From Candidatus Hydrogenedentota bacterium (lineage in GTDB: Bacteria > Hydrogenedentota > Hydrogenedentia > Hydrogenedentales > SLHB01), in the NCBI GenBank assembly GCA_045863295.1, contig BTWA01000007.1, positions 8,459 through 72,458 of the forward strand: DNA of 64,000 bases, given 5' to 3'. This document shows, in pieces, positions 1-28,973 of this stretch. Each line of letters opens with the position of its first letter. The stretch's first letter is position 1. The translations under genes were made by a program, and so were the position numbers. Under the pieces are notes generated by a model that was not told the origin of the DNA, did not search any database, and saw nothing but the letters and a program-made list of their open reading frames with translations.

Positions 1-10
1 GTTGTGGCAT

Positions 11-47
11 AAAAGTGAAATGCGCCGCAACGGGGATTGCAGCGCAC
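11..47 (-). terminator. Putative intrinsic terminator
   Basis: GUGCGCUGCAAU-CCCC-GUUGCGGCGCAU stem followed by a U-rich tract on the minus strand. Confidence 0.6.
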
Positions 48-238
48 TCAAGGAAGAAATACGTAGGGACTTGCGAGTCTCCGGACTGGCGGGATAGACC
101 AACCGGCGACTGTGCCGCTTAGGAGATTGGATAGGTCTCCTTGGCGGGAGAATGCGGCGAGGGATGAGCACCGCATTCCGTTTTCAACTGTCCGACATCC
201 GTGTCGAGTTGCCTTAGCATCCTTGCTTCGGCCTTGTA
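11..238 (-). ncRNA. Candidate sigma28-dependent structured sRNA (2 GGA-loop hairpins, 4 AUCC-loop hairpins, terminator)
   Basis: Lies downstream of a sigma28-type promoter (245-271). Hairpins on the minus strand at 216-227 (AGCA-AGGA-UGCU), 185-211 (CGACA-CGGA-UGUCG), 150-178, 115-147, 81-106 and 20-47, the last followed by UUUCACUUUU. Stems at 81-106 and 20-47 have G-U pairs on the minus strand that would be C-A mismatches on plus. The 5' end is estimated from the -10 position. Confidence 0.55.
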
Positions 239-244
239 CTCTGT

Positions 245-271
245 ATATCGGCCGGGTGGTTCAAAACTTTA
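245..271 (-). promoter_or_regulatory. Sigma28 (FliA/SigD) promoter
   Basis: Minus strand reads TAAA-N15-GCCGATAT, matching the FliA/SigD consensus TAAA-N15/16-GCCGATA(A/T). Confidence 0.75.
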
Positions 272-424
272 GCATTCCACAAGGGGTTGTGTGTTGATTC
301 GGAAATGGTTTTATCCGTTGGGGCAAGCTGGTACAATCTTCCTGAGGGTCGGGTCGCGCGCACGAATGGCGGAAGTGCCCTGCGGCCCATGGGTGTCCTT
401 TCCGGGGCAAGGGTAGGCGAACGC

Positions 425-1273
425 ATGAGCGTGGTTGTCTTTGGGGCCGGCGGTCAATTGGGCCGCGATCTCCTCCGTGTATTTTCCCGGACAGAGGACG
501 TGTTTCCCTATGACCATCACGACGTGGATATCACCAATCGCGATGCCGTGATGAAATGTATGCAGTCCGTTAATCCGGCTTGGGTCATTAATGCCGCCGC
601 CTATACCGACGTGGAAAAGTCGGAAGACGATCGAGACGCCGCGTTTCGAGTCAATGAAACCGGTGCTCGTGTCGTGGCGCAATGCGCGCATGTTCAGAAT
701 GTGCCGGTCGTTTACTTCAGCACGGATTTTGTTTTCGATGGAACGGCATACACTCCGTACGAACCCGAAGATGCCATTGAACCCCGAGGCGCGTATGCAC
801 AGTCAAAAGCCGCGGGCGAAGCCGCCGTGAGGTCGGTATCGCCCCGTCATTACATCGTGCGCACCGCGTGGTTGTACGGACCGGGAGGAAACAACTTTGT
901 AGAGAAGATACTGAATGCCGCCTCCGTACGGCCTTCGTTGCGCGTGGTTACAGACGAAATAGGCTCTCCGACGCATACGCTCGACTTGGCGCGTGCAACC
1001 GCCGCGCTCGTATGCACCGGACAGTACGGTACGTACCATGCCGTAAACGAAGGGAGTTGTTCCCGGTTCGCATTTGCGGAGTCAATCGTGCGCGAGGCCG
1101 GGCTCGCCACTCAAATTGAACCGTGTTTGGCGTCGGACTATCCGTCCAAAGCGCCGCGTCCATCGTATTCAGTGATGTCGAATGCCAAGTTGAAGGCTGC
1201 GTGCGGAATAGAGATGCCGCAATGGCAGACCGCTCTGGCTGAGTATATGAAGAGAAGGGAGATCCAGGAATGA
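425..1273 (+). CDS. rfbD: dTDP-4-dehydrorhamnose reductase
   Basis: GAGGQLG, NAAAYTDV, STDFVFDG, YAQSK, RTAWLY and GSPT motifs; start moved to the ATG at 425. Confidence 0.95.
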   Translation: MSVVVFGAGGQLGRDLLRVFSRTEDVFPYDHHDVDITNRDAVMKCMQSVNPAWVINAAAYTDVEKSEDDRDAAFRVNETGARVVAQCAHVQNVPVVYFSTDFVFDGTAYTPYEPEDAIEPRGAYAQSKAAGEAAVRSVSPRHYIVRTAWLYGPGGNNFVEKILNAASVRPSLRVVTDEIGSPTHTLDLARATAALVCTGQYGTYHAVNEGSCSRFAFAESIVREAGLATQIEPCLASDYPSKAPRPSYSVMSNAKLKAACGIEMPQWQTALAEYMKRREIQE

Positions 1274-2268
1274 AGCGCGTCGTGGTGACAGGTGGGGCAG
1301 GTTTTATCGGGTCCAACTTTGTCCGTTACATGTTGGCCACGTATCCGGAAGTGCACATTGTCAATGTGGACAAGCTTACGTATGCGGGCAATCTCGAAAA
1401 CTTGAAGGGAATCGACGAGTCGCGCCACACCTTTGTGAAGGCGGATATCGCCGATCCGGAAGCCATGGATCGGGCGATGGAAGGCGCCGACGCTATCGCG
1501 AGCTTCGCGGCCGACAGCCACGTCGACCGAAGCATCATGGAGGCCGCCGACTTCATCGCGACCAACGTCAAAGGGGTCCACAACATTCTTGAATCCGCCA
1601 AGAAACACGGGACCAAGCGGATACTGCTGGTCTCCACCGACGAAGTGTACGGCAGCATCGCGCAAGGCTCTTTCAAGGAAACCGATCCCGTCAATCCTCG
1701 AAATCCCTATTCCGCCAGCAAGGCCGGCGGTGAATTGCTTGGCATGTCGTATTTCCACACGTTTGGATTGCCGGTAATCATTACCCGAGGTTCCAACACA
1801 TACGGGCCGTATCAATACCCGGAGAAAGTATTACCTCTGTTTGTAACCAATGCCATCGACGGGGAGCCGCTTCCACTCTACGGCGACGGCAAAAATGTCC
1901 GGGACTGGCTATACGTCGAAGACCACTGCCGCGGCGTCGATCACGCTCTGCGCCATGGCACACCCGGAAATGTCTACAACGTCGCCGGCGAAAACGAACG
2001 GGAAAACGTCACGCTTACCCATCGAATCCTCGAACTCACGGGCCGGGGACACGATCTGATCAAACCTGTTGCGGACAGACCGGGTCACGACCGCCGGTAT
2101 TCGATTGATTCGACCAAGTTAAAGGCGCTCGGTTGGGAACCCAAAATGCCGTGGGACGACGGCGTCGCAAAGACCGTCGAGTGGTATCAACAGAACGAAT
2201 GGTGGTGGAGGCCCATCAAATCCGGTGCGTTCCGCGATTACTACCAGCGGCAATACGGAAACAGGTGA
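1270..2268 (+). CDS. rfbB: dTDP-glucose 4,6-dehydratase
   Basis: TGGAGFIGSNF, DKLTYAGN, SHVDRSI, STDEVYG, PYSASKA and RPGHDRRY motifs; ATGA overlap with rfbD. Confidence 0.97.
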   Translation: MKRVVVTGGAGFIGSNFVRYMLATYPEVHIVNVDKLTYAGNLENLKGIDESRHTFVKADIADPEAMDRAMEGADAIASFAADSHVDRSIMEAADFIATNVKGVHNILESAKKHGTKRILLVSTDEVYGSIAQGSFKETDPVNPRNPYSASKAGGELLGMSYFHTFGLPVIITRGSNTYGPYQYPEKVLPLFVTNAIDGEPLPLYGDGKNVRDWLYVEDHCRGVDHALRHGTPGNVYNVAGENERENVTLTHRILELTGRGHDLIKPVADRPGHDRRYSIDSTKLKALGWEPKMPWDDGVAKTVEWYQQNEWWWRPIKSGAFRDYYQRQYGNR

Positions 2269-2471
2269 AACAGTGGCTTGCCGCGGGTTGAAACCAGGAT
2301 GCTTGGCCAAAGGTCCAAGAAGCGGGCCTGAGGTAAATACCTTCAGGGAATTGGGTGTGGTTTGGATCGTGAATCAGAAGGGCAATCTACTGCGCCAGAG
2401 TATCGAACAGGCGGCCTGCCCAGACACTACTCAAGGCCGGGTTTCCCAAAGTAACCCTCGCGTATCGGGTT

Positions 2472-2501
2472 TTGACATGCCTGCCATGGTTTTGTCATAC
2501 T
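2472..2501 (+). promoter_or_regulatory. Putative sigma70 promoter
   Basis: TTGACA-N18-CATACT with an extended -10 TG, about 190 nt upstream of the SDR start. Confidence 0.45.
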
Positions 2502-2507
2502 CCCCCG

Positions 2508-2682
2508 ACTTTATGCCTGACTGCGGTTTTGCTGGCCAAACTGGCCAGTGCAACCGGGGGGATGGCATTCTGAGACGGACGCGAATCCACGCAATTCCAC
2601 GAGTTCTTATGGGATCGGGTTCGCGCCTTCTTTGGGGTGTGAACCGCCCTGTCATATGCAGTCAATCGCATTCAAGAGAGGA
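2508..2682 (+). promoter_or_regulatory. Structured 5' leader with alternative pairings (cis-regulatory RNA candidate)
   Basis: Hairpins at 2524-2556 and 2618-2645; long-range TGACTGC (2518-2524) with GCAGTCA (2658-2664); directly precedes the SD AGAGAGGA. Confidence 0.4.
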
Positions 2683-2688
2683 TCAAGC

Positions 2689-3870
2689 ATGAAGGGCAAG
2701 ACCGTGCTATTGACCGGGGCCACTGGCATTATGGGCAGTTGGGTCCTCGGCGAAGCCTTGGCGAAGGGCGTGCGTCCGGTAGTCATCATGAGGGACGAAA
2801 ACCCGCAACGCGCACAAGACCGAATCGACGCCGTGCTGCGCCTGATCGGCAAAGAGCAATACCGCGATCGTGTGCGCGTCGTCAAAGGTGATGCTTCGCG
2901 GCCAAATTTCGGGCTTGCGTCTGCGCTAGTCGATGAGTTTCGATCCACCTTGGACGCGGTCCTGCACTGCGCGGCGTCAACAAGCTTCAATCCCAGCGAC
3001 GATTCCGACATTTGGGCGACCAACGTCGAAGGTGTGTCCCATGTATTGAACTTCGTGCGCGGCACCGACATCACCCTGTACCACGTTAGTACCGCCTATA
3101 TCGCCGGAACCTATCCCGGACTGTCCCACGAAGACGTTCTTGATCGGCAACAGGAGTTCAACAATACCTACGAACGCAGCAAGTTCGAATCCGAAGGCAT
3201 GGTTCGGCGCGGCCTCAAGAACGGCGATTTCCAAGGGGCCATTTTCCGTCCGGCCATCATCGTCGGGGCCACTGATACGGGCAAGATCTCCGATTTCATG
3301 AACTTCTACGGGTTCTTGCGTATGGCCGATTTGGCCTCAACCCGCAAGGGTACCGGCAATACGATAGTGCGGGTAGAGGCAAGCCCCGATGTGCGGGTGA
3401 ATCTCGTTCCCGTGGATTGGACCGCCAAGGCGCTTTGGCACATTATCGAGGCTGAAGGCGCCAGCGGCCACGCCTACCATCTCACAAATCCCAACGCGCA
3501 CCCGGTCGGCGAATTGAAAGACTGGGTGAATACCTTGATTCACGATCAAGGCCTGCGATTCGAGTTGGTGGACCGTTTGGATGACGCCACCACAACGTTG
3601 GAAAACATTGCGCACAACGCGTTCAGGCACTACCGGTGCTACCTGAAACAGCAACCGGATTTCGACCGGACCAATACCGATCGCGCCCTAAATGGAACGC
3701 TTCCGTTTCCGGAAATTGGCCCTGACACCTACAGCGTACTCCTGGATTACGCGCGCTCACAGCGTTGGAAAGGCATCTTCGCCAATTCCAAAGTCTCGGC
3801 AAACGGACACACCGGCAGTGGTCGCCGCATCTCGACCGACTACACCCCGGCCGCTGCTGTGGCAAATTAA
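2689..3870 (+). CDS. Extended SDR oxidoreductase (NAD_binding_4 / fatty acyl- or thioester-reductase-like)
   Basis: LLTGATGIMG, HCAASTSF, HVSTAYIAG, NTYERSK, FRPAIIVG and NLVPVDW motifs; SD upstream. Confidence 0.85.
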   Translation: MKGKTVLLTGATGIMGSWVLGEALAKGVRPVVIMRDENPQRAQDRIDAVLRLIGKEQYRDRVRVVKGDASRPNFGLASALVDEFRSTLDAVLHCAASTSFNPSDDSDIWATNVEGVSHVLNFVRGTDITLYHVSTAYIAGTYPGLSHEDVLDRQQEFNNTYERSKFESEGMVRRGLKNGDFQGAIFRPAIIVGATDTGKISDFMNFYGFLRMADLASTRKGTGNTIVRVEASPDVRVNLVPVDWTAKALWHIIEAEGASGHAYHLTNPNAHPVGELKDWVNTLIHDQGLRFELVDRLDDATTTLENIAHNAFRHYRCYLKQQPDFDRTNTDRALNGTLPFPEIGPDTYSVLLDYARSQRWKGIFANSKVSANGHTGSGRRISTDYTPAAAVAN

Positions 3871-3899
3871 ACGCGTCAAAGTACAAGTCGGAATTCCTG

Positions 3900-3930
3900 A
3901 ATGCTCCGGTCAAACCGGGGCATTTTCTAT
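3900..3930 (+). terminator. Putative intrinsic terminator
   Basis: AATGCTCCGGT-CAA-ACCGGGGCATT followed by a T-rich tail after the SDR gene. Confidence 0.55.
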
Positions 3931-5571
3931 TCATGCGCGTGTGACCCGTATTCCTTCCGGAGCGGTAACTTCGCTCATGACGCTTCCATCCGCATGTCGC
4001 GTGTGCGATACCGTGATAAGTCCATGCGGGGTAGGCAGCGCCCCCTTGGCCCATTGCAGATCGCCCAGATTCGGCTTGACGAGCACGCTCTCAAATCCCG
4101 GCGCCAGCGGCTTGATACCTAATACATGTTCCGACATCCACGCTGTCGGCCCTGCCGCCCAGCCATGGCACAGGCTGTGGCGCAAGCCAACGTAACAATA
4201 GTCGCCGAAGTCAGCGTGGATATCCTTCTTGCCGTCCGGGGTGATGGCATCGATTGTCCCGCAGTTCCGGGTCCAATCAAGGTTGAAGTCTTCCCAGAAT
4301 GTGGTCGCGCCGAGTTTTAGCATTGTGCCCCAATAATGGCGAATCACATCCAGACAGCCCTGATAGTCGCCTGCTTCCGCCCGGGCCTGAAGAACGTAAT
4401 AGCCGTAGAACGTCGAGATGCCCGAATACTGACCCGCCGCGAGGATATCGGCGTTAATTTCCTTTGTGTCGGCGACCCCGGCCAGCGCCATGAGCGCGCT
4501 GGCTTGTTTGCTTGCCGTTCGAGCAGGAGTATGCAATTGAAGCGAATTGGCCGCGGCGAGGCACTCGTTTTGCCCTTGCGGTTCTTCCAGTGCATAACAC
4601 AGATCGGCCGCCGCACGAAACGCAATGATGAGCAAGGAGTGAAGACCCGCATGAATAGCGGCCGGATCTTCGCTGCTGGGCCAGTCGAGAAATCGATGGC
4701 CCTCCAGCTTCTCGCTGTGATCCGGCCCAATGCAGGCATGCAGTTGCTTGAGTAACCCCATCAGATATTCGCGCTGTTGCGCGAGATAGTCTTTGTCCGC
4801 ATGATAGAAATACCAGCACTGCTGAATAATAATCCACCAAAGCGAATAGGAACTGATTCCATTCATCCAACCTGGAAGTGGCGTCTTGTCCCGCACCCAA
4901 TCCAGGCTGTCAGGCACGACATCTACATGGCCAAACACCGTGTTGATGACCATTGTCTCCGGATGCATGTCGCCTATCCAGACGAGTCGGTCGCGCTTGA
5001 TGCCGTCCCAAACATGCTCCTGCATGCAGAGGTGCACCGTATAGGCGCCGGTATTCCAAATCGTATTCAGTAACGGATCACTGCACTCAAAGCGGCCCAA
5101 ATAGGGCAAGTCGCGATACAAAAAGACGGCTTCGACCTTTACAAGATCGAGCCGGCTCCCAGGTTCAACCAAATCTATACGTACAAATCGAAATCCCGTA
5201 TTGCCGATCTCTGTGCTGCCGTACCATGGTATCTCGCAAAGGATGTTGTGTATGGCGTGATCGTTGTTCGGCGTGCCCATGGCCTCGCTGACAGATTCGC
5301 CAAAACGCACGCGGACCTTTACCGGGGCCTGCACAGGCGTGATGAAGTTGGTGATTTTGATGCCGCCATGCAGTTCGCGGCCAAAATCCAGCAGCATACC
5401 CGGTGCCTCGGCGCTCTTAAACTCCATTACGCAAGTGCCAATATTCGGATCCGGGCTCAGCAGGCGTTCCGTATTGTGCGGCCCGGATTCGTCGTTCGTC
5501 GACCACACAATTCGCGTGGGGAGGAGGTAGTCCCGAACACGGGGATCGCGGCGTCCGTTGTGTTGCAACAT
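3931..5571 (-). CDS. Alpha-L-rhamnosidase-like glycoside hydrolase (GH78, short form)
   Basis: LDFGRE, GFRFVRI, DGIKRDRLVWIGD, GATTFWE, SLCHGW and PTPHG motifs. Confidence 0.85.
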   Translation of the reverse strand: MLQHNGRRDPRVRDYLLPTRIVWSTNDESGPHNTERLLSPDPNIGTCVMEFKSAEAPGMLLDFGRELHGGIKITNFITPVQAPVKVRVRFGESVSEAMGTPNNDHAIHNILCEIPWYGSTEIGNTGFRFVRIDLVEPGSRLDLVKVEAVFLYRDLPYLGRFECSDPLLNTIWNTGAYTVHLCMQEHVWDGIKRDRLVWIGDMHPETMVINTVFGHVDVVPDSLDWVRDKTPLPGWMNGISSYSLWWIIIQQCWYFYHADKDYLAQQREYLMGLLKQLHACIGPDHSEKLEGHRFLDWPSSEDPAAIHAGLHSLLIIAFRAAADLCYALEEPQGQNECLAAANSLQLHTPARTASKQASALMALAGVADTKEINADILAAGQYSGISTFYGYYVLQARAEAGDYQGCLDVIRHYWGTMLKLGATTFWEDFNLDWTRNCGTIDAITPDGKKDIHADFGDYCYVGLRHSLCHGWAAGPTAWMSEHVLGIKPLAPGFESVLVKPNLGDLQWAKGALPTPHGLITVSHTRHADGSVMSEVTAPEGIRVTRA

Positions 5572-5576
5572 GGCGG

Positions 5577-6518
5577 TTACTTCTCCTTATGCGAGGCAAC
5601 CCAAATCTTCGCTTGGCCCGGATGGTCCGTGAAGATACCATCCACGCCGAACGTGGCGAAAAACTGGCGTAGCTCGTCCTCAAAACTGCCCATGGTTTGC
5701 GGTACCTGGTCGGCACGAAGTGTGTAGGGATGAACCTTCAAATTCGCCGCGTGCGCCCATTTCACGACCTCCGGATTTTTTACAATACGGCCCTTGTCCG
5801 GTCCAATGCCCTGCGCATACGCGGCTATCGCTTTCAATCCGTCCTGCGTCACCATGCCATCCTGAATCACTCCGCCCGAAATCAGTTGTATCATCTGCGC
5901 CTTGCATCCCATTTCGCCGCGAAGCCGTTTTAAGGCATCAGGTTCAAAGCACTGAACGAAAATCGGAGCGTCCAGCCGATCCAAATTGTGGGCCCGGATA
6001 ATCTCCAGGAACGCCGCCTCCATGGGCAAACCCTGTTCCGCATGCCAACTAGGCTCTTTCAGTTCGGGATACACACCCGCGTTCCTCCCCGCCGAAGTGT
6101 TCAGCGCCTCAACCGTTTTCAACATCTCTTCAAACGTAGGCACTTCAAAATACAGCGCATCTTGAGGAAAGCGGTTTGCCAAACGCTCATGTACGCGAAG
6201 TGTCTTAATTTCAGCGAGCGTGAAATCCGCTGCATACCAGCGACCGTCATCTCGCTTGCGATCGGGAAATACCTCCTCCACGTTCGTCGTAGCCTCAAGA
6301 TGTATGTCGTGCAAACAGATGAACGTGCCATCCTTCGTCAGGACAAGGTCCGGTTCGATGTAGTCTGCCCCCTGGGCATGCGCAACGGCATACGCGGCCA
6401 ACGTATGTTCGGGCAAGTGTCCGCTCGCGCCACGGTGCGCGATAATTATCGGGTCGGCGGAGGCTGCGATCCCCGCCAGAAGACCCGGAATACAGCATAC
6501 AAGTACGGTCCGAATCAT
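5577..6518 (-). CDS. glpQ: Glycerophosphodiester phosphodiesterase
   Basis: IIAHRGASGHLPEHT, YIEPDLVLTKDG, HD, YPELK and GIFTDHP motifs; signal peptide; GGAG SD before ATG 6518. Confidence 0.9.
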   Translation of the reverse strand: MIRTVLVCCIPGLLAGIAASADPIIIAHRGASGHLPEHTLAAYAVAHAQGADYIEPDLVLTKDGTFICLHDIHLEATTNVEEVFPDRKRDDGRWYAADFTLAEIKTLRVHERLANRFPQDALYFEVPTFEEMLKTVEALNTSAGRNAGVYPELKEPSWHAEQGLPMEAAFLEIIRAHNLDRLDAPIFVQCFEPDALKRLRGEMGCKAQMIQLISGGVIQDGMVTQDGLKAIAAYAQGIGPDKGRIVKNPEVVKWAHAANLKVHPYTLRADQVPQTMGSFEDELRQFFATFGVDGIFTDHPGQAKIWVASHKEK

Positions 6519-6710
6519 GAGTTGCGGCTCCAAGTGTTGACGCGAATTCAAAGTCGCTACTCTACACCATTAGGAAGAAGCCGCCAAAGTAACGAAGAGG
6601 TCAGCCGCGAATTCCACTTGCGTTTTGCGGCCCAACGTGATTTGATGGATTAAGTTTGCGCCGGCGGGATATGGGGGCATAGCCCGGCCAGGCGCCCGGG
6701 GGGTCCGGCC

Positions 6711-7505
6711 ATGCGCCCAGTTGCTCTGCTCCTTTGCGCCCTGCCCTTGTTGTCTGTGGCCTCATCCGATACGCCAGTCCGTGTACTCATCCTGTCCGGC
6801 CAGAACAATCATGACTGGAAAACCACGACGCCGTTCATGGAACAAATGTTTGATGAAAGTGAACGATTCGCCGCCGACGTCATGGAAGATCCGTCGAAAC
6901 TGACCGCGGAGTTTCTGGCCCCTTATGATGTGATCGTGAGCAACTGGAGCGCATATCCCGCAATGACCGGCCGGCAATGGGGGCCTGTAGCCGAGCAAGC
7001 ACTCATCGAGTTTGTACGGAATGGAAAGGGTTTCGTGCTGGTCCATGCCGCAACGGCATGCTTCTCCGATTGGCCCGAATTCCAGGAAATGGCGGGATGT
7101 ACCTGGGGAGACGCGTCAGGACACGGCAAAGTGCATGCGTTTGCAGTGAACATCAAGGACGCGGAACATCCGATCGCAGTAGGGATGTCTGCGTTCATAA
7201 CGCAACCCGACGAACTCTATCATCGGCTTACACCCCAGCCGTCGATGCACGTAGTGTGCGAAGCCTATTCCGATCCCGAAATGAAAGGCACGGGTCAGTA
7301 TGAGCCGGTGGCCGTGGTCACAAATTATGGCAAAGGACGCTGTTTCTACAACATACTGGGTCACAACGTGGCGGCAATGGACGGCCCCGGCTGGCGCACA
7401 TTGATGCTGCGGGGCACGGAATGGGCTGCCACCGATAATGTGACAATTCCGATTCCGCAGCCCTGGCCGTCCGCGAAAGTAAATAATCCTCCAGCGACTG
7501 AATAG
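6711..7505 (+). CDS. ThuA (trehalose utilization)-like domain protein, secreted
   Basis: VLILSGQNNHDW, GKGFVLVH, DELYH, YGKGRCFYNILGH and RGTEWAA motifs; signal peptide. Confidence 0.85.
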   Translation: MRPVALLLCALPLLSVASSDTPVRVLILSGQNNHDWKTTTPFMEQMFDESERFAADVMEDPSKLTAEFLAPYDVIVSNWSAYPAMTGRQWGPVAEQALIEFVRNGKGFVLVHAATACFSDWPEFQEMAGCTWGDASGHGKVHAFAVNIKDAEHPIAVGMSAFITQPDELYHRLTPQPSMHVVCEAYSDPEMKGTGQYEPVAVVTNYGKGRCFYNILGHNVAAMDGPGWRTLMLRGTEWAATDNVTIPIPQPWPSAKVNNPPATE

Positions 7506-7556
7506 TAGGCACGAACGCTGTCTCCCCCAGGACGGCCTTAATCGGGAGACTTCGCC

Positions 7557-8861
7557 ATGAGAACCCATACTTTCCTTACCCGCCGTTGCTTCCTGGGGTC
7601 GGCAGCCGCTGGTGCGGCCCTGCTTGCGTTGCCCGCGCACGCGAAACCGAAGCCATCGGATCAAATCGGCGTGGGATTCATCGGCGTGGGGGATAGGGGA
7701 AGTTACATTCTGGGAAGCGCGCTTGAACTGCCCGAGGCACGGGTATTGGCCGTGGCTGATGTGAAGCGTGACCGACGTGAAAAGGCCGTGCAGACAATCA
7801 ACGAACGCTACTCCAATTCCGACTGCAAAGCCTACAACGAATTTGAAGAACTAATCGCGCGAGACGATATCGACGCGATTGTCGTTGCATCGTGCGATCA
7901 CTGGCACGTGCTTCATGCTTTGGCTGCCGTGCGCGCGGGTAAAGACGTTTACGTGGAAAAGCCGCTCGGAGTCAGCATTGAACAAATCAAGGCGTTACGG
8001 AAAGCCGTGCGGCGCCGCAAACGCATCTTCCAATTCGGCACGCAACAGCGCTCCGACGAACGATTCCGGCTCGCCTGTGAACTCGTGCGCAACGGCCGCA
8101 TAGGACAGTTGAAGTCAATCAAAGTTTGGTCTCCTTCAAGCGCCTCGGGCGGTCCCACAAACCATGTGCCCGTGCCGGAGACCCTTGACTACAATCGCTG
8201 GATTGGCCCCGCGCCTTTTACCCCCTACACCCAGGATCGCGAGACAAATCAATGGTGGTGGTTTATTTCGGATTATGCCCTCGGGTTCATCGCAGGCTGG
8301 GGAATTCATCCGATGGATATCGCGTTATGGGGGGCCGGCGATTTGGCGGCATCGCCTGTCGTGGTTCAAGGTACCGGCGAGTTTCCCCGGGAGGGAGTGT
8401 GCAATACCGCCACGAAATGGGATATCACACATACATACGACAACGGATTGACCATCCAGTTCGCTTCCATGCCGGCAAAAGAGGAATGGAAACTGCGATA
8501 CGGTGAGGTGGCGGAACACGGAACCGCATTCGAGGGCTCCGAAGGTTGGATTATTGTGGACAGGCGTCACATCAAGACGTATCCCGAGTCGGTGGCAACC
8601 GCTCCCTTCAATGCGAATGACTATCGTCTGCCGGGCAGCAATCACCATCTCCGCAATTTCCTGAATTCGGTGAAGTCGCGCCAAGACCCCGTGAGCCCAA
8701 TTGAAGAGTCCGTACAAAGCGACATTGCCTGCCACGTCGCGGACATCGCGATCCGCTTACAACGCCCGGTCCGTTGGGACAACGCAAAAGAGCGGTTTAT
8801 CGATGATGCCGAAGCCAATGCGCGACTGACTCGCCCCATGCGCGAACCTTGGACCTTATAG
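7557..8861 (+). CDS. Tat-exported Gfo/Idh/MocA oxidoreductase
   Basis: TRRCFL twin-arginine motif; GVGDRG, DHWH, DVYVEKP, GTQQRS and WGIHPMD motifs. Confidence 0.9.
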   Translation: MRTHTFLTRRCFLGSAAAGAALLALPAHAKPKPSDQIGVGFIGVGDRGSYILGSALELPEARVLAVADVKRDRREKAVQTINERYSNSDCKAYNEFEELIARDDIDAIVVASCDHWHVLHALAAVRAGKDVYVEKPLGVSIEQIKALRKAVRRRKRIFQFGTQQRSDERFRLACELVRNGRIGQLKSIKVWSPSSASGGPTNHVPVPETLDYNRWIGPAPFTPYTQDRETNQWWWFISDYALGFIAGWGIHPMDIALWGAGDLAASPVVVQGTGEFPREGVCNTATKWDITHTYDNGLTIQFASMPAKEEWKLRYGEVAEHGTAFEGSEGWIIVDRRHIKTYPESVATAPFNANDYRLPGSNHHLRNFLNSVKSRQDPVSPIEESVQSDIACHVADIAIRLQRPVRWDNAKERFIDDAEANARLTRPMREPWTL

Positions 8862-28694: not shown

Positions 28695-28722
28695 TAAAGT
28701 CAGATTCTGCCGATGCCGATAT
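28695..28722 (+). promoter_or_regulatory. Sigma28 promoter
   Basis: TAAA-N16-GCCGATAT upstream of the yjfB-like gene. Confidence 0.75.
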
Positions 28723-28778
28723 ACTTAGTACCAAGGGCGAACCCCAAAAAGGGGTCCAACCAATAGGAGGAAGGGCAT

Positions 28779-28973
28779 ATGGCAAGCATAGACGGCATCG
28801 CGGCCACCGCGACAGCACTGAAATCTGCCGAGTTCTCTGCCTCCTACCAAATCGCCGCCCTCAAGAAGCAAATCGAAACTGTCGACAAAGCTGGCGCGGC
28901 AGCATTGAAGCTTATCCAGACCGCCATGAGCCTTGATCCGCAGGTGGGCCAGAACATCAATGCCCTCGTTTGA
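28779..28973 (+). CDS. yjfB: YjfB-family putative motility protein
   Basis: 64 aa with IAALKK..AALKLIQ..DPQVGQNIN pattern; AGGAGG SD; sigma28 promoter. Confidence 0.8.
   Translation: MASIDGIAATATALKSAEFSASYQIAALKKQIETVDKAGAAALKLIQTAMSLDPQVGQNINALV

Follow-up and report, generated by a model that had tools for sequence, protein, structure and literature searches.

Candidate sigma-28-driven small RNAs of Candidatus Hydrogenedentota with putative CsrA-type GGA hairpins and a segment complementary to flagellin start sites

What is encoded at the left edge of a 64 000 nt stretch of a Candidatus Hydrogenedentota genome (assembly GCA_045863295.1, contig BTWA01000007.1, here called C7), which shows a promoter but no recognizable gene? 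The stretch, referred to below as the window, starts at base 8459 of the contig, and the genome (6.3 Mb) is 96% complete. Window positions 271..11, read on the minus strand, form a unit consisting of a sigma-28-type promoter, a body of about 230 nt and a terminator. The RNA encoded at 240..11 of the minus strand was named RNA1. A sequence-only reading of this DNA had described a near-consensus sigma28 promoter, about 230 nt without a credible open reading frame (ORF), six hairpins and a final stem with a U-tract, and all of these elements were present on the minus strand. It had also taken the unit for an undescribed, stand-alone small RNA (sRNA) rather than for the 5′ leader of a gene. Both proposals held: comparison with Rfam gave no family, and to the left of the unit there is a second promoter-to-terminator unit followed by no gene. 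Judged from the sequence evidence described below, RNA1 is most likely a real and conserved member of an undescribed sRNA family, encoded by a strand-specific gene.

The promoter is of the sigma-28 (FliA) type. Its −35 element TAAAGTTT (264..271) and −10 element GCCGATAT (245..252) are separated by an 11-nt spacer; the E. coli sigma-28 consensus is TAAAGTTT-N11-GCCGATAA. From this spacing and from the conserved 5′ end of the family, AGUNCAAGG, the RNA1 5′ end is predicted near 240..238. The body contains no closed ORF of at least 60 aa, the longest ORFs being 33-57 aa. Folding of both strands favoured the minus strand: its fold had an energy of −94.1 kcal/mol against −73.6 ± 4.9 kcal/mol in 200 dinucleotide shuffles (z −4.20, no shuffle as good), whereas for the plus strand z was −1.00 and 34 shuffles were equally good. 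The unit ends in an intrinsic terminator (11..48, minus strand) with a 13-bp stem (48..36/31..19), the loop CCCC (35..32) and a U-rich tail (18..11). The terminator scan by itself was at chance level (1 found, 0.6 expected).

Rfam was searched at E values up to 10 with window positions 1..3000 and the left flank; no family matched, and only chance-level scores were obtained. The best score for RNA1 was that of RsmY (12.7 bits, E = 6, gathering score 57), which covered only 235..192. Two further matches, msiK at 18.9 bits inside a rhamnose gene and the MS2 hairpin at 13.4 bits, were dismissed as chance-level. An RNA library (X2) yielded a single 152-nt contig identical to window 71..222, which shows presence only; the flanks of RNA1 had no contig in X2, an observation that is uninformative since missing contig cover carries no weight. 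A second sequencing run (X1) is probably DNA and says nothing on expression.

The second, homologous unit, RNA2, lies just left of window base 1, at 8207..8420 of contig C7 (about 1249..1462 of record L001), also on the minus strand. Its promoter reads TCAAGTTT-N11-GCCGATAG, its body contains two GGA hairpins of the GACANGGANGUC type, one hairpin with an AUCCC loop and the C-rich motif GGUCUUGCCUCC, and its terminator closely resembles that of RNA1. The approximately 780 nt downstream of RNA2 (465..1248 of L001, about 7423..8206 of C7) revealed no credible ORF and no Rfam match; the sole frames present, on either strand, are Arg/Pro-rich and 120-136 aa long. RNA1 is not a leader, because it is followed by a terminator, then by the RNA2 unit and then by no gene. 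No flagellin gene was found near RNA1 or RNA2; the flagellin genes of this genome are on contigs C4, C21 and C40. Divergent from the sRNA pair, the plus strand carries two ORFs (window 425..2268) which by eye encode dTDP-4-dehydrorhamnose reductase and dTDP-glucose 4,6-dehydratase. A tie between these rhamnose-type ORFs and flagellin glycosylation is conceivable.

BLAST with RNA1 and RNA2 gave short matches in 26 of 41 related genomes. The loci found in this way contained 23 units that each begin with a promoter and share a single architecture; tandem groups of two or three were frequent. Members start with the sigma-28 promoter, which is followed by a first hairpin with a GGCC-type outer stem, a purine internal loop, the inner stem GAC/GUC and the loop A(N)GGA(N). 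The middle part comprises a second hairpin, GACANGGANGUC, often the linker AGUUGAA, and then one to four hairpins with (A/C/U)AUCCC loops. The 3′ end consists of a single-stranded C-rich motif (ACCUCC or ACCCUC type), UGAG and a terminator starting with GUGCGCC. Hairpins with UCCC loops recur across the family with differing stems. The conservation of both the GGA hairpins and the UCCC-type loops in relatives bore out what had been supposed from RNA1 by itself.

Searching these loci with a profile built from only the 3′ module gave 50 sites, and a sigma-28 motif was present 130-290 nt upstream of 46 of them; the four misses are variant −10 elements or locus edges. In 22 further loci, picked only by the 3′ model, a promoter was found at 30 of the 37 matches, and two of the seven misses were opposite-strand echoes of the terminator. 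Among 30 promoter-led members picked by the 3′ module, 22 had at least one GGA hairpin and eight had none, so the family comprises long members that carry the GGA module and short ones that lack it.

The two ends of the RNA are supported by compensatory changes. In an alignment of the 5′ module (48 sequences) both sides had changed at five of the six base pairs of hairpin 1, and 97.9% of the cells were paired. The hairpin 2 core GACANGGANGUC was invariant in this alignment, in part owing to the selection of sequences, as 24 of the 48 came from a pattern scan that required this core; in members picked by the 3′ module only, hairpin 2 was recovered in 22 of 30. In the terminator alignment (47 sequences) changes on both sides were seen at seven of ten pairs, with 95.3% of the cells paired, and none of 500 shuffles reached the covariation score. 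The terminator G-U pairs fix the strand, because they become A-C mismatches on the other strand (e.g. in 11 and 13 sequences at two pairs). A covariation count on the UCCC-loop hairpins was dropped, since these hairpins had been picked from their own fold and were paired by construction.

Strand-specific motif bias was pronounced. In 69 unique family RNAs (13 316 nt, with G and C about equal) ATCCC occurred 83 times and GGGAT four times, TCCC 159 and GGGA 28 times, CCCTC 46 times and GAGGG twice; GTTGAA was found 26 times and its complement once. No conserved ORF was detected in these RNAs, the longest closed ORFs being 3-56 aa with no common frame. Their 254 non-terminator hairpin loops included 75 with GGA and 75 holding or abutting UCCC, and 27 of 68 terminator loops had UCCC.

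A covariance model of the 3′ module matched 97 of the 133 genomes of the order, including 68 of the 84 high-quality ones, usually with two to four copies per genome that were often 250-480 nt apart; two further genomes of the phylum were both negative with this model. The 5′-module covariance model matched 101 of the 133 genomes, and in the genome of the window it found RNA1 and RNA2 only. The architecture is kept across 13 families of the order. csrA is present in 102 of the 133 genomes, and a hand tally gave 89 genomes with both the RNA and csrA, eight with the RNA only, 13 with csrA only and 23 with neither, a tally that is descriptive only because the genomes are related. Most of the last class belongs to family f11, in which the RNA occurs in 3 of 23 genomes and csrA in 1 of 23; this family is mostly without flagellin (2 of 8 sampled). 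In a named collection, at least 18 pattern matches with a promoter, in 17 of 117 loci, were found among the matches listed. Among these listed matches, ten promoter-led loci were labelled Candidatus Hydrogenedentota, -tes or -tales, five uncultured Nitrospirales or Nitrospiraceae, one uncultured bacterium and one Hydrogenispora; the other listed hits were mostly coding repeats or unrelated hairpin pairs, and the listing is no guide to how the family is distributed beyond the phylum. In three genomes (G095:C2 218920..223653, G098:C6 43041..47923 and G025:C32 10980..12045) an sRNA array lies 0.5-2 kb from a flagellin cluster.

The promoter type connects RNA1 with the late flagellar genes of its own genome. 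FliA is encoded there, above the curated cut-off, and a relaxed sigma-28-type motif has only 18 matches in the 6.3 Mb, both strands included. Besides the two RNAs, the motif precedes two FlgM-like genes (41.8 and 23.4 bits, Pfam cut-off 25), FlgK, FlgN, a flagellin, FliD and YjfB; seven of the eight downstream proteins submitted fell into flagellar Pfam families. The promoter recognized in the sequence-only reading is thus of the type that serves late flagellar genes here, and the three genes that reading had named, fliA, csrA and fliW, are all present. fliW and csrA are adjacent, and the 73-aa CsrA protein, encoded on contig C46, can be aligned over its full length with CsrA proteins of solved structure. 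A weak second CsrA-like frame (26.9 bits, at the level of the Pfam cut-off) was seen within a 131-aa open frame of the 1.5-kb contig C88 (L023 900..1043). Hfq (PF17209) had no match in this 96%-complete genome. In the window itself, positions 28695..28970 of the plus strand hold a sigma-28-type promoter (TAAAGTCAG...GCCGATAT), a strong Shine-Dalgarno (SD) sequence and a gene for a 64-aa YjfB putative motility protein (38.4 bits).

The flagellin leaders of these genomes have a design related to that of the sRNAs. In this genome and in 30 loci of relatives, a GGA or GGGAU loop is located about 20 nt before the SD region CUCA-N-GGAGGA. In 59 unique 200-nt segments upstream of flagellin genes GGGAT occurred 47 times and ATCCC five times, a mirror image of the bias in the sRNAs. 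Since a sigma-28-like promoter was found within 200 nt in only 7 of 61 cases, many flagellin genes are inside clusters. On the minus strand of contig C21 (62000..63750, L190) one flagellin gene is preceded, at a distance of about 550 nt, by a sigma-28-type promoter, and the long leader between them abounds in hairpin motifs with GGGAU and GGA. The predicted targets of RNA1 are this flagellin and the next one downstream.

In the minimum free energy (MFE) fold the two hairpins closest to the RNA1 5′ end present GGA in their loops. Hairpin 1 (211..233, minus strand) has an outer CC/GG stem, a purine internal loop, the inner stem AGCA/UGCU and the loop AGGA (223..220), and hairpin 2 (193..206) is CGACA-CGGA-UGUCG with the loop CGGA (201..198). 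Such consensus GGA hairpin loops of the A(N)GGA type occur as a pair in RNA1 and in most family members, about 22 nt apart, whereas the other GGA triplets of RNA1 sit in stems, e.g. AGGAGA at 141..136. The hairpin core ACANGGANGU equals the CsrA/RsmE site consensus, and by this resemblance hairpins 1 and 2 are putative CsrA-type sites. When RNA1 and RNA2 were aligned with four sigma-28-led flagellin leaders, promoter matched promoter, hairpin 1 fell on the leader GGA hairpin (CCGA-x-GCA-x-GGA-x-GC-xx-AGG) and hairpin 2 took the place of the SD. By this alignment the 5′ module appears to be copied from the two CsrA sites of the flagellin leader.

Downstream of hairpin 2 RNA1 contains the conserved linker AGUUGAA (183..189, identified in the family motif count), which in the fold is partly paired with 211..207, and three hairpins with C-rich loops. 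Hairpin 3 (149..179) has an 11-bp stem and the loop CUCAUCCCU (168..160), hairpin 4 (115..147) has the loop CCUAUCCAA (135..127) and an inner stem that hides the AGGAGA stretch, and hairpin 5 (76..111) has the loop CUAUCCC (97..91). They are followed by a 34-nt segment (42..75), mostly single-stranded in the MFE fold and recognized as antisense in the duplex predictions. Positions 75..54 of this segment are unpaired, 53..49 are paired with the 5′ end (CAAGG), and 48..42 begin the terminator stem.

The 34-nt segment is complementary to flagellin start sites. Across the family, the C-rich motif with UGAG(U) is the reverse complement of the leader sequence (A)CUCA-N-GGAGG, and reverse complementation of the common GGUCUUACCUCC gives GGAGGUAAGACC, present before the AUG of several flagellin genes. 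Between RNA1 75..42 and the mRNA of one C21 flagellin a duplex of 30 bp (−42.3 kcal/mol) was predicted, extending from 22 nt before the AUG to codon 4; the neighbouring, tandem C21 flagellin gave 27 bp and −36.7 kcal/mol. Without the terminator arm the values were −30.5 and −24.0 kcal/mol. Among 8806 SD-bearing start sites (mean −16.9, standard deviation 4.0) the two C21 flagellins ranked 2 and 9 (z about −4.5 and −3.8), and the start sites of the two FlgM genes, FlgK, FlgN and YjfB had ranks from 3602 to 8651. Energies were needed for this comparison, as ungapped runs of at least 10 nt occur at 11 715 sites for RNA1, too many to use. A BLAST search of the genome with whole RNA1 and RNA2, in one orientation only, gave no long complementarity, the hits being 13-18 nt long and at chance level.

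The same relationship was followed in 28 genomes having both sRNA and flagellin loci, with 53 sRNA segments. When the sRNA 3′ segment was compared with the last 28 nt of a flagellin leader from the same genome, the longest run of perfect complementarity averaged 9.0 nt (range 5-15). Shuffled segments averaged 5.5 ± 0.2 nt and mismatched genome pairs 8.03 nt; permutation of the labels gave p = 0.00045 for the cognate pairs, or 0.0008 with G-U pairs allowed. A flagellin duplex was in the best 1% of 1200 background start sites for 20 of the 53 segments (17 of the 28 genomes) and in the best 5% for 31 segments (20 genomes), with the result blurred by some segments that were weak profile hits and probably non-members.

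It had been supposed that C-rich parts of the RNA pair with SD motifs and that the repeated AUCC loops do so. The first part stands; in place of the loops the single-stranded segment 75..42 emerged as the main element. CAUCCCUA loops of several members are exact complements of UAGGGAUG leader loops, and at this motif level C-rich loops could form kissing contacts with the GGGAU loops of flagellin leaders. The suggestion of a GGA/UCC loop-loop switch within the RNA found no support: the loop of hairpin 1 varies (AAGGAGG, ACGGAGG, AAGGAAG, AGGGAGG), and sequences compared by eye showed no matching changes in the 3′ anti-SD motif (ACCUCC or ACCCUC), so an intramolecular pairing of the two was set aside.

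We consider the odds somewhat in favour of RNA1 being a trans-acting late-flagellar sRNA with two functions, a flagellin-specific antisense repressor that is also a CsrA binder. The data behind this reading are sequence features, conservation, covariation, co-occurrence with csrA, and complementarity with its specificity; transcription, CsrA binding, the sign of regulation and the involvement of RNase III are inferred. RNA1, one of two tandem paralogues, would be made by sigma-28 RNA polymerase alongside the late flagellar genes, and whenever sigma-28 is active flagellin mRNAs and the family RNAs would appear together. The 3′ half would pair with the ribosome-binding site, the start codon and the first codons of specific flagellin mRNAs, here those of the two C21 genes. 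The pairing would block translation initiation and shut off the targeted mRNAs, and the duplex would probably be a substrate of RNase III; further contacts may form between AUCCC-type loops of the RNA and GGGAU-type loops in those leaders. The leader-like 5′ half would bind one CsrA dimer. It could act as a decoy that draws off CsrA and frees other flagellin mRNAs, such as the unmatched one on C4, or as part of a matchmaker arrangement in which CsrA bridges sRNA and leader. The matchmaker version is attractive because no Hfq was found; in B. subtilis CsrA was reported to promote an sRNA-mRNA pairing, according to a 2020 review (PMC7652899). In sum, flagellin synthesis would be under a brake that is timed by sigma-28, selects among paralogues and forms part of the CsrA-FliW-flagellin circuit.

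Several observations speak against such a dual role. CsrA binding is proposed from motif resemblance alone, hairpin 1 of RNA1 deviates from the family core by having AGCA...UGCU in place of GAC...GUC, and two sites per RNA are few for a sponge. As about a quarter of the members (8 of 30) are without GGA hairpins, CsrA binding cannot be the core function of the family. Eight genomes have the RNA and no csrA match; most of them are incomplete, but G060 and G073 are 94% and 95% complete. The X2 contig is read-length, of low depth and possibly DNA carry-over. On the antisense side, not all 34 nt are free, because 48..42 belong to the terminator stem and 53..49 are paired with the 5′ end. The third and fourth flagellins, on C4 and C40, are unmatched by RNA1 (ranks 1450 and 5171). 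For RNA2, the flagellin start sites of this genome were not enriched (ranks 968-1850 among the 8806), and with a longer segment its best flagellin duplex was only in the top 4.75%; its best start sites belong to a large secreted repeat protein and unrelated genes, with no pattern. The background start sites used for these ranks were crudely called and, for the other genomes, borrowed from this genome. In the relatives the excess of cognate over non-cognate complementarity is small and the genomes are non-independent, and only part of the flagellin leaders of each genome was sampled, which blurs the result. Matching changes at the variable base of CA-N-GGAGG and CCUCC-N-UGAG were no more frequent than in permuted pairs (0.67 vs 0.65, p = 0.42), in a test whose pattern caught sRNAs in only 19 of the 28 genomes.

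Which other explanations could account for these features? The RNA might be an antisense sRNA that works purely by base pairing, with GGA hairpins serving stability, folding or anti-SD masking and CsrA not engaged in vivo. This is unlikely, yet it accounts for the complementarity and its specificity, for the members that lack GGA hairpins and keep the 3′ half, and for the pairing of the 5′ CAAGG with 53..49 in the fold. What it leaves unexplained is that the GGA loops are invariant while their stems covary, and that they match the leader's own sites and the CsrA site consensus. In family f11 the RNA was also lost together with csrA, but because most flagellin has gone from that family as well (2 of 8 sampled), the loss does not separate the two readings. 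The opposite proposal, a pure CsrA sponge like CsrB, RsmY or RsmZ but driven by sigma-28, its flagellin complementarity stemming from common descent with the flagellin 5′ region, we regard as improbable. It is encouraged by the conservation of the paired consensus GGA hairpins, seen in 101 of 133 genomes, by the co-occurrence of the RNA with csrA, by the homology of the 5′ module to the CsrA sites of the leader, and by minimal two-hairpin units in two Firmicutes-labelled records (L038 and L151) that have only a sigma-28-like promoter and a terminator besides; room for it is left by the 2020 review, which treats joint action of FliW and an sRNA on CsrA as undetermined in any species (PMC7652899). 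The best-conserved part of the family is, however, the C-rich 3′ half and not the GGA hairpins, which 8 of 30 members lack and which amount to only two sites per RNA. Moreover, 17 of 28 genomes retain the antisense match when the cut-off is set at 1%, and the antisense part is inverted relative to the leader, which a simple duplication fails to explain.

Two further explanations deny the locus a trans-acting RNA. Both halves resemble flagellin 5′ regions, one in sense and one in antisense, and the support for expression is not solid, features that would fit a silent relic, i.e. an inverted and decayed flagellin 5′ fragment with a fossil promoter. Against the architecture maintained in 13 families, the compensatory changes in three helices, the intact promoter and terminator in 46 of 50 cases, a flagellin similarity that ends at codon 4 and a strand-specific motif bias, this is very improbable. 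It is scarcely credible that the locus acts in cis, as a leader or attenuator for a minus-strand gene farther downstream or for the plus-strand gene of the rhamnose pathway. RNA1 does lie 150 nt from the divergent start of the dTDP-rhamnose-type reductase gene, but on the minus strand the terminator, the second promoter-to-terminator unit and about 780 nt without a credible ORF intervene, the plus strand folds no better than shuffles, and family members are found in differing neighbourhoods and in tandem arrays.

Pairs of GGA-loop hairpins were also seen outside the phylum. Record L038 (416..520, Hydrogenispora sp.) and record L151 (Bacillota bacterium) contain RNAs of about 65 nt with a sigma-28-like promoter, two GACANGGANGUC hairpins and a terminator. 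These minimal RNAs are without the C-rich half, and in L038 a tRNA gene follows; by their sequence they may be free-standing two-site CsrA decoys in Firmicutes. In Lachnospiraceae, Clostridiales and Acetatifactor records (L067, L069, L074, L089, L092, L118, L132) the paired hairpins are long-stemmed, GACA(U/C)GGAUGUC, and share a TTCTTAGTGTT-like box at a fixed distance upstream. Paired GGA-loop hairpins were noted in intergenic-looking DNA of Pontibacter (L041, L055, L106, L109, L137), and likewise in Salinicola and Halotalea (L062, L078, L083, L084, L101), Lysobacter (L082, L110, L112) and Acinetobacter (L064, L097). Several of the pairs in other phyla or classes have multiple copies per genome, and the gammaproteobacterial ones may be Csr/Rsm-type sRNAs.

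A bolder form of the dual-function reading is offered tentatively. It takes the family for two-headed riboregulators that arose from the flagellin leader, in which one sigma-28 transcript would join a decoy of its CsrA sites to an antisense copy of its start region. Such an RNA would relieve flagellin mRNAs of CsrA, or employ CsrA as a chaperone in the role otherwise filled by Hfq, and would choose, phylum-wide, the flagellin paralogues that are translated. The current view is that sponge RNAs control CsrA in Gammaproteobacteria and that the protein FliW does so elsewhere. According to the 2020 review, it 'remains to be determined' whether CsrA is ever subject to joint action of FliW and sRNAs (PMC7652899). 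We found no sRNA partner of a FliW-type CsrA in the literature, the search having left out subscription journals and supplements. A 2025 paper states that no sRNA work bears on CsrA modulation in H. pylori or C. jejuni, which belong to FliW-bearing genera (PMC11905337). The family provides a concrete candidate that makes clear predictions as to CsrA sites, mRNA target and compensatory mutations, from a phylum that has FliW, CsrA and sigma-28, and from a genome without detectable Hfq. If the bolder form is true, a FliW-type CsrA would for the first time have a small RNA as its partner, and the two-headed RNA would show an sRNA gene arising from the 5′ end of its own target gene; paralogue-selective control of flagellin would join the known checkpoints of flagellar assembly, and stripped-down two-hairpin decoys would exist in some Firmicutes-labelled genomes. 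For annotation, the two covariance models mark two to four RNA genes, so far unannotated, in roughly three of every four genomes of the phylum.

How does the family relate to known regulators? CsrB, CsrC, RsmX, RsmY and RsmZ likewise have GGA in hairpin loops, an intrinsic terminator and several paralogues per genome. In the 2020 review CsrB is described as carrying 22 GGA, and the CsrB/Rsm sRNAs as depending on BarA-UvrY/GacS-GacA and occurring where fliW is absent (PMC7652899). They typically have 4 to 22 GGA, whereas RNA1 combines two sites with a sigma-28 promoter and with a large half that is antisense. No model of Rfam clan CL00106 reached its gathering score with RNA1, and the GGA count is too low for membership. 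Dependence of the GacA/UvrY type is not indicated by the promoter, which is of the sigma-28 type; an upstream activating sequence was not specifically searched.

Sigma-28-dependent sRNAs are described for E. coli (UhpU, MotR, FliX, FlgO) and for C. jejuni (CJnc170/FlmR, CjNC1/CjNC4) (PMC10578931, PMC11187230, PMC4626219). They belong like RNA1 to the late flagellar regulon, and they influence motility, the number of flagella and the amount of flagellin. Those of E. coli are derived from untranslated regions and bound by Hfq, MotR and FliX pair inside coding sequences, and none of these sRNAs is reported to bind CsrA. RNA1 differs from them in having a free-standing gene, in being antisense to a flagellin SD and start codon, and in its CsrA-type hairpins. 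The 5′ module has its counterpart in flagellin leaders: the flaA mRNA of C. jejuni is both a target and a titrator of CsrA in the CsrA-FliW network (PMC4894983), and the hag leader of B. subtilis is bound by CsrA (PMC13443453). These leaders resemble the 5′ module in having a sigma-28 or sigma-D promoter followed by two CsrA-bound GGA sites. Unlike them, RNA1 has no downstream ORF and ends in a terminator, and its second site is a hairpin rather than the SD. RsaE/RoxS and S. aureus RNAIII pair with G-rich ribosome-binding sites through UCCC motifs in loops or single strands. From these RNA1 is set apart by the lack of an Rfam match at E values up to 10, by its phylum and promoter, and by a much longer, gene-specific antisense segment.

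None of the systems compared unites all three traits seen here, the sigma-28 promoter, the CsrA-type hairpins and the antisense half. By analogy, the closest known match in logic is McaS of E. coli, an Hfq-dependent, gammaproteobacterial sRNA that is not known to be driven by sigma-28. McaS pairs with mRNAs, including those of motility genes, and has at least two CsrA-binding GGA motifs, a combination like that proposed for RNA1. Base pairing by McaS, together with high-affinity binding of CsrA to at least two GGA motifs, is described in the 2020 review (PMC7652899). RNA1 is unrelated to McaS in sequence (no Rfam family), and it belongs to a genome in which Hfq was not found and FliW is present; its GGA module, unlike that of McaS, appears to copy the CsrA sites of its own target.

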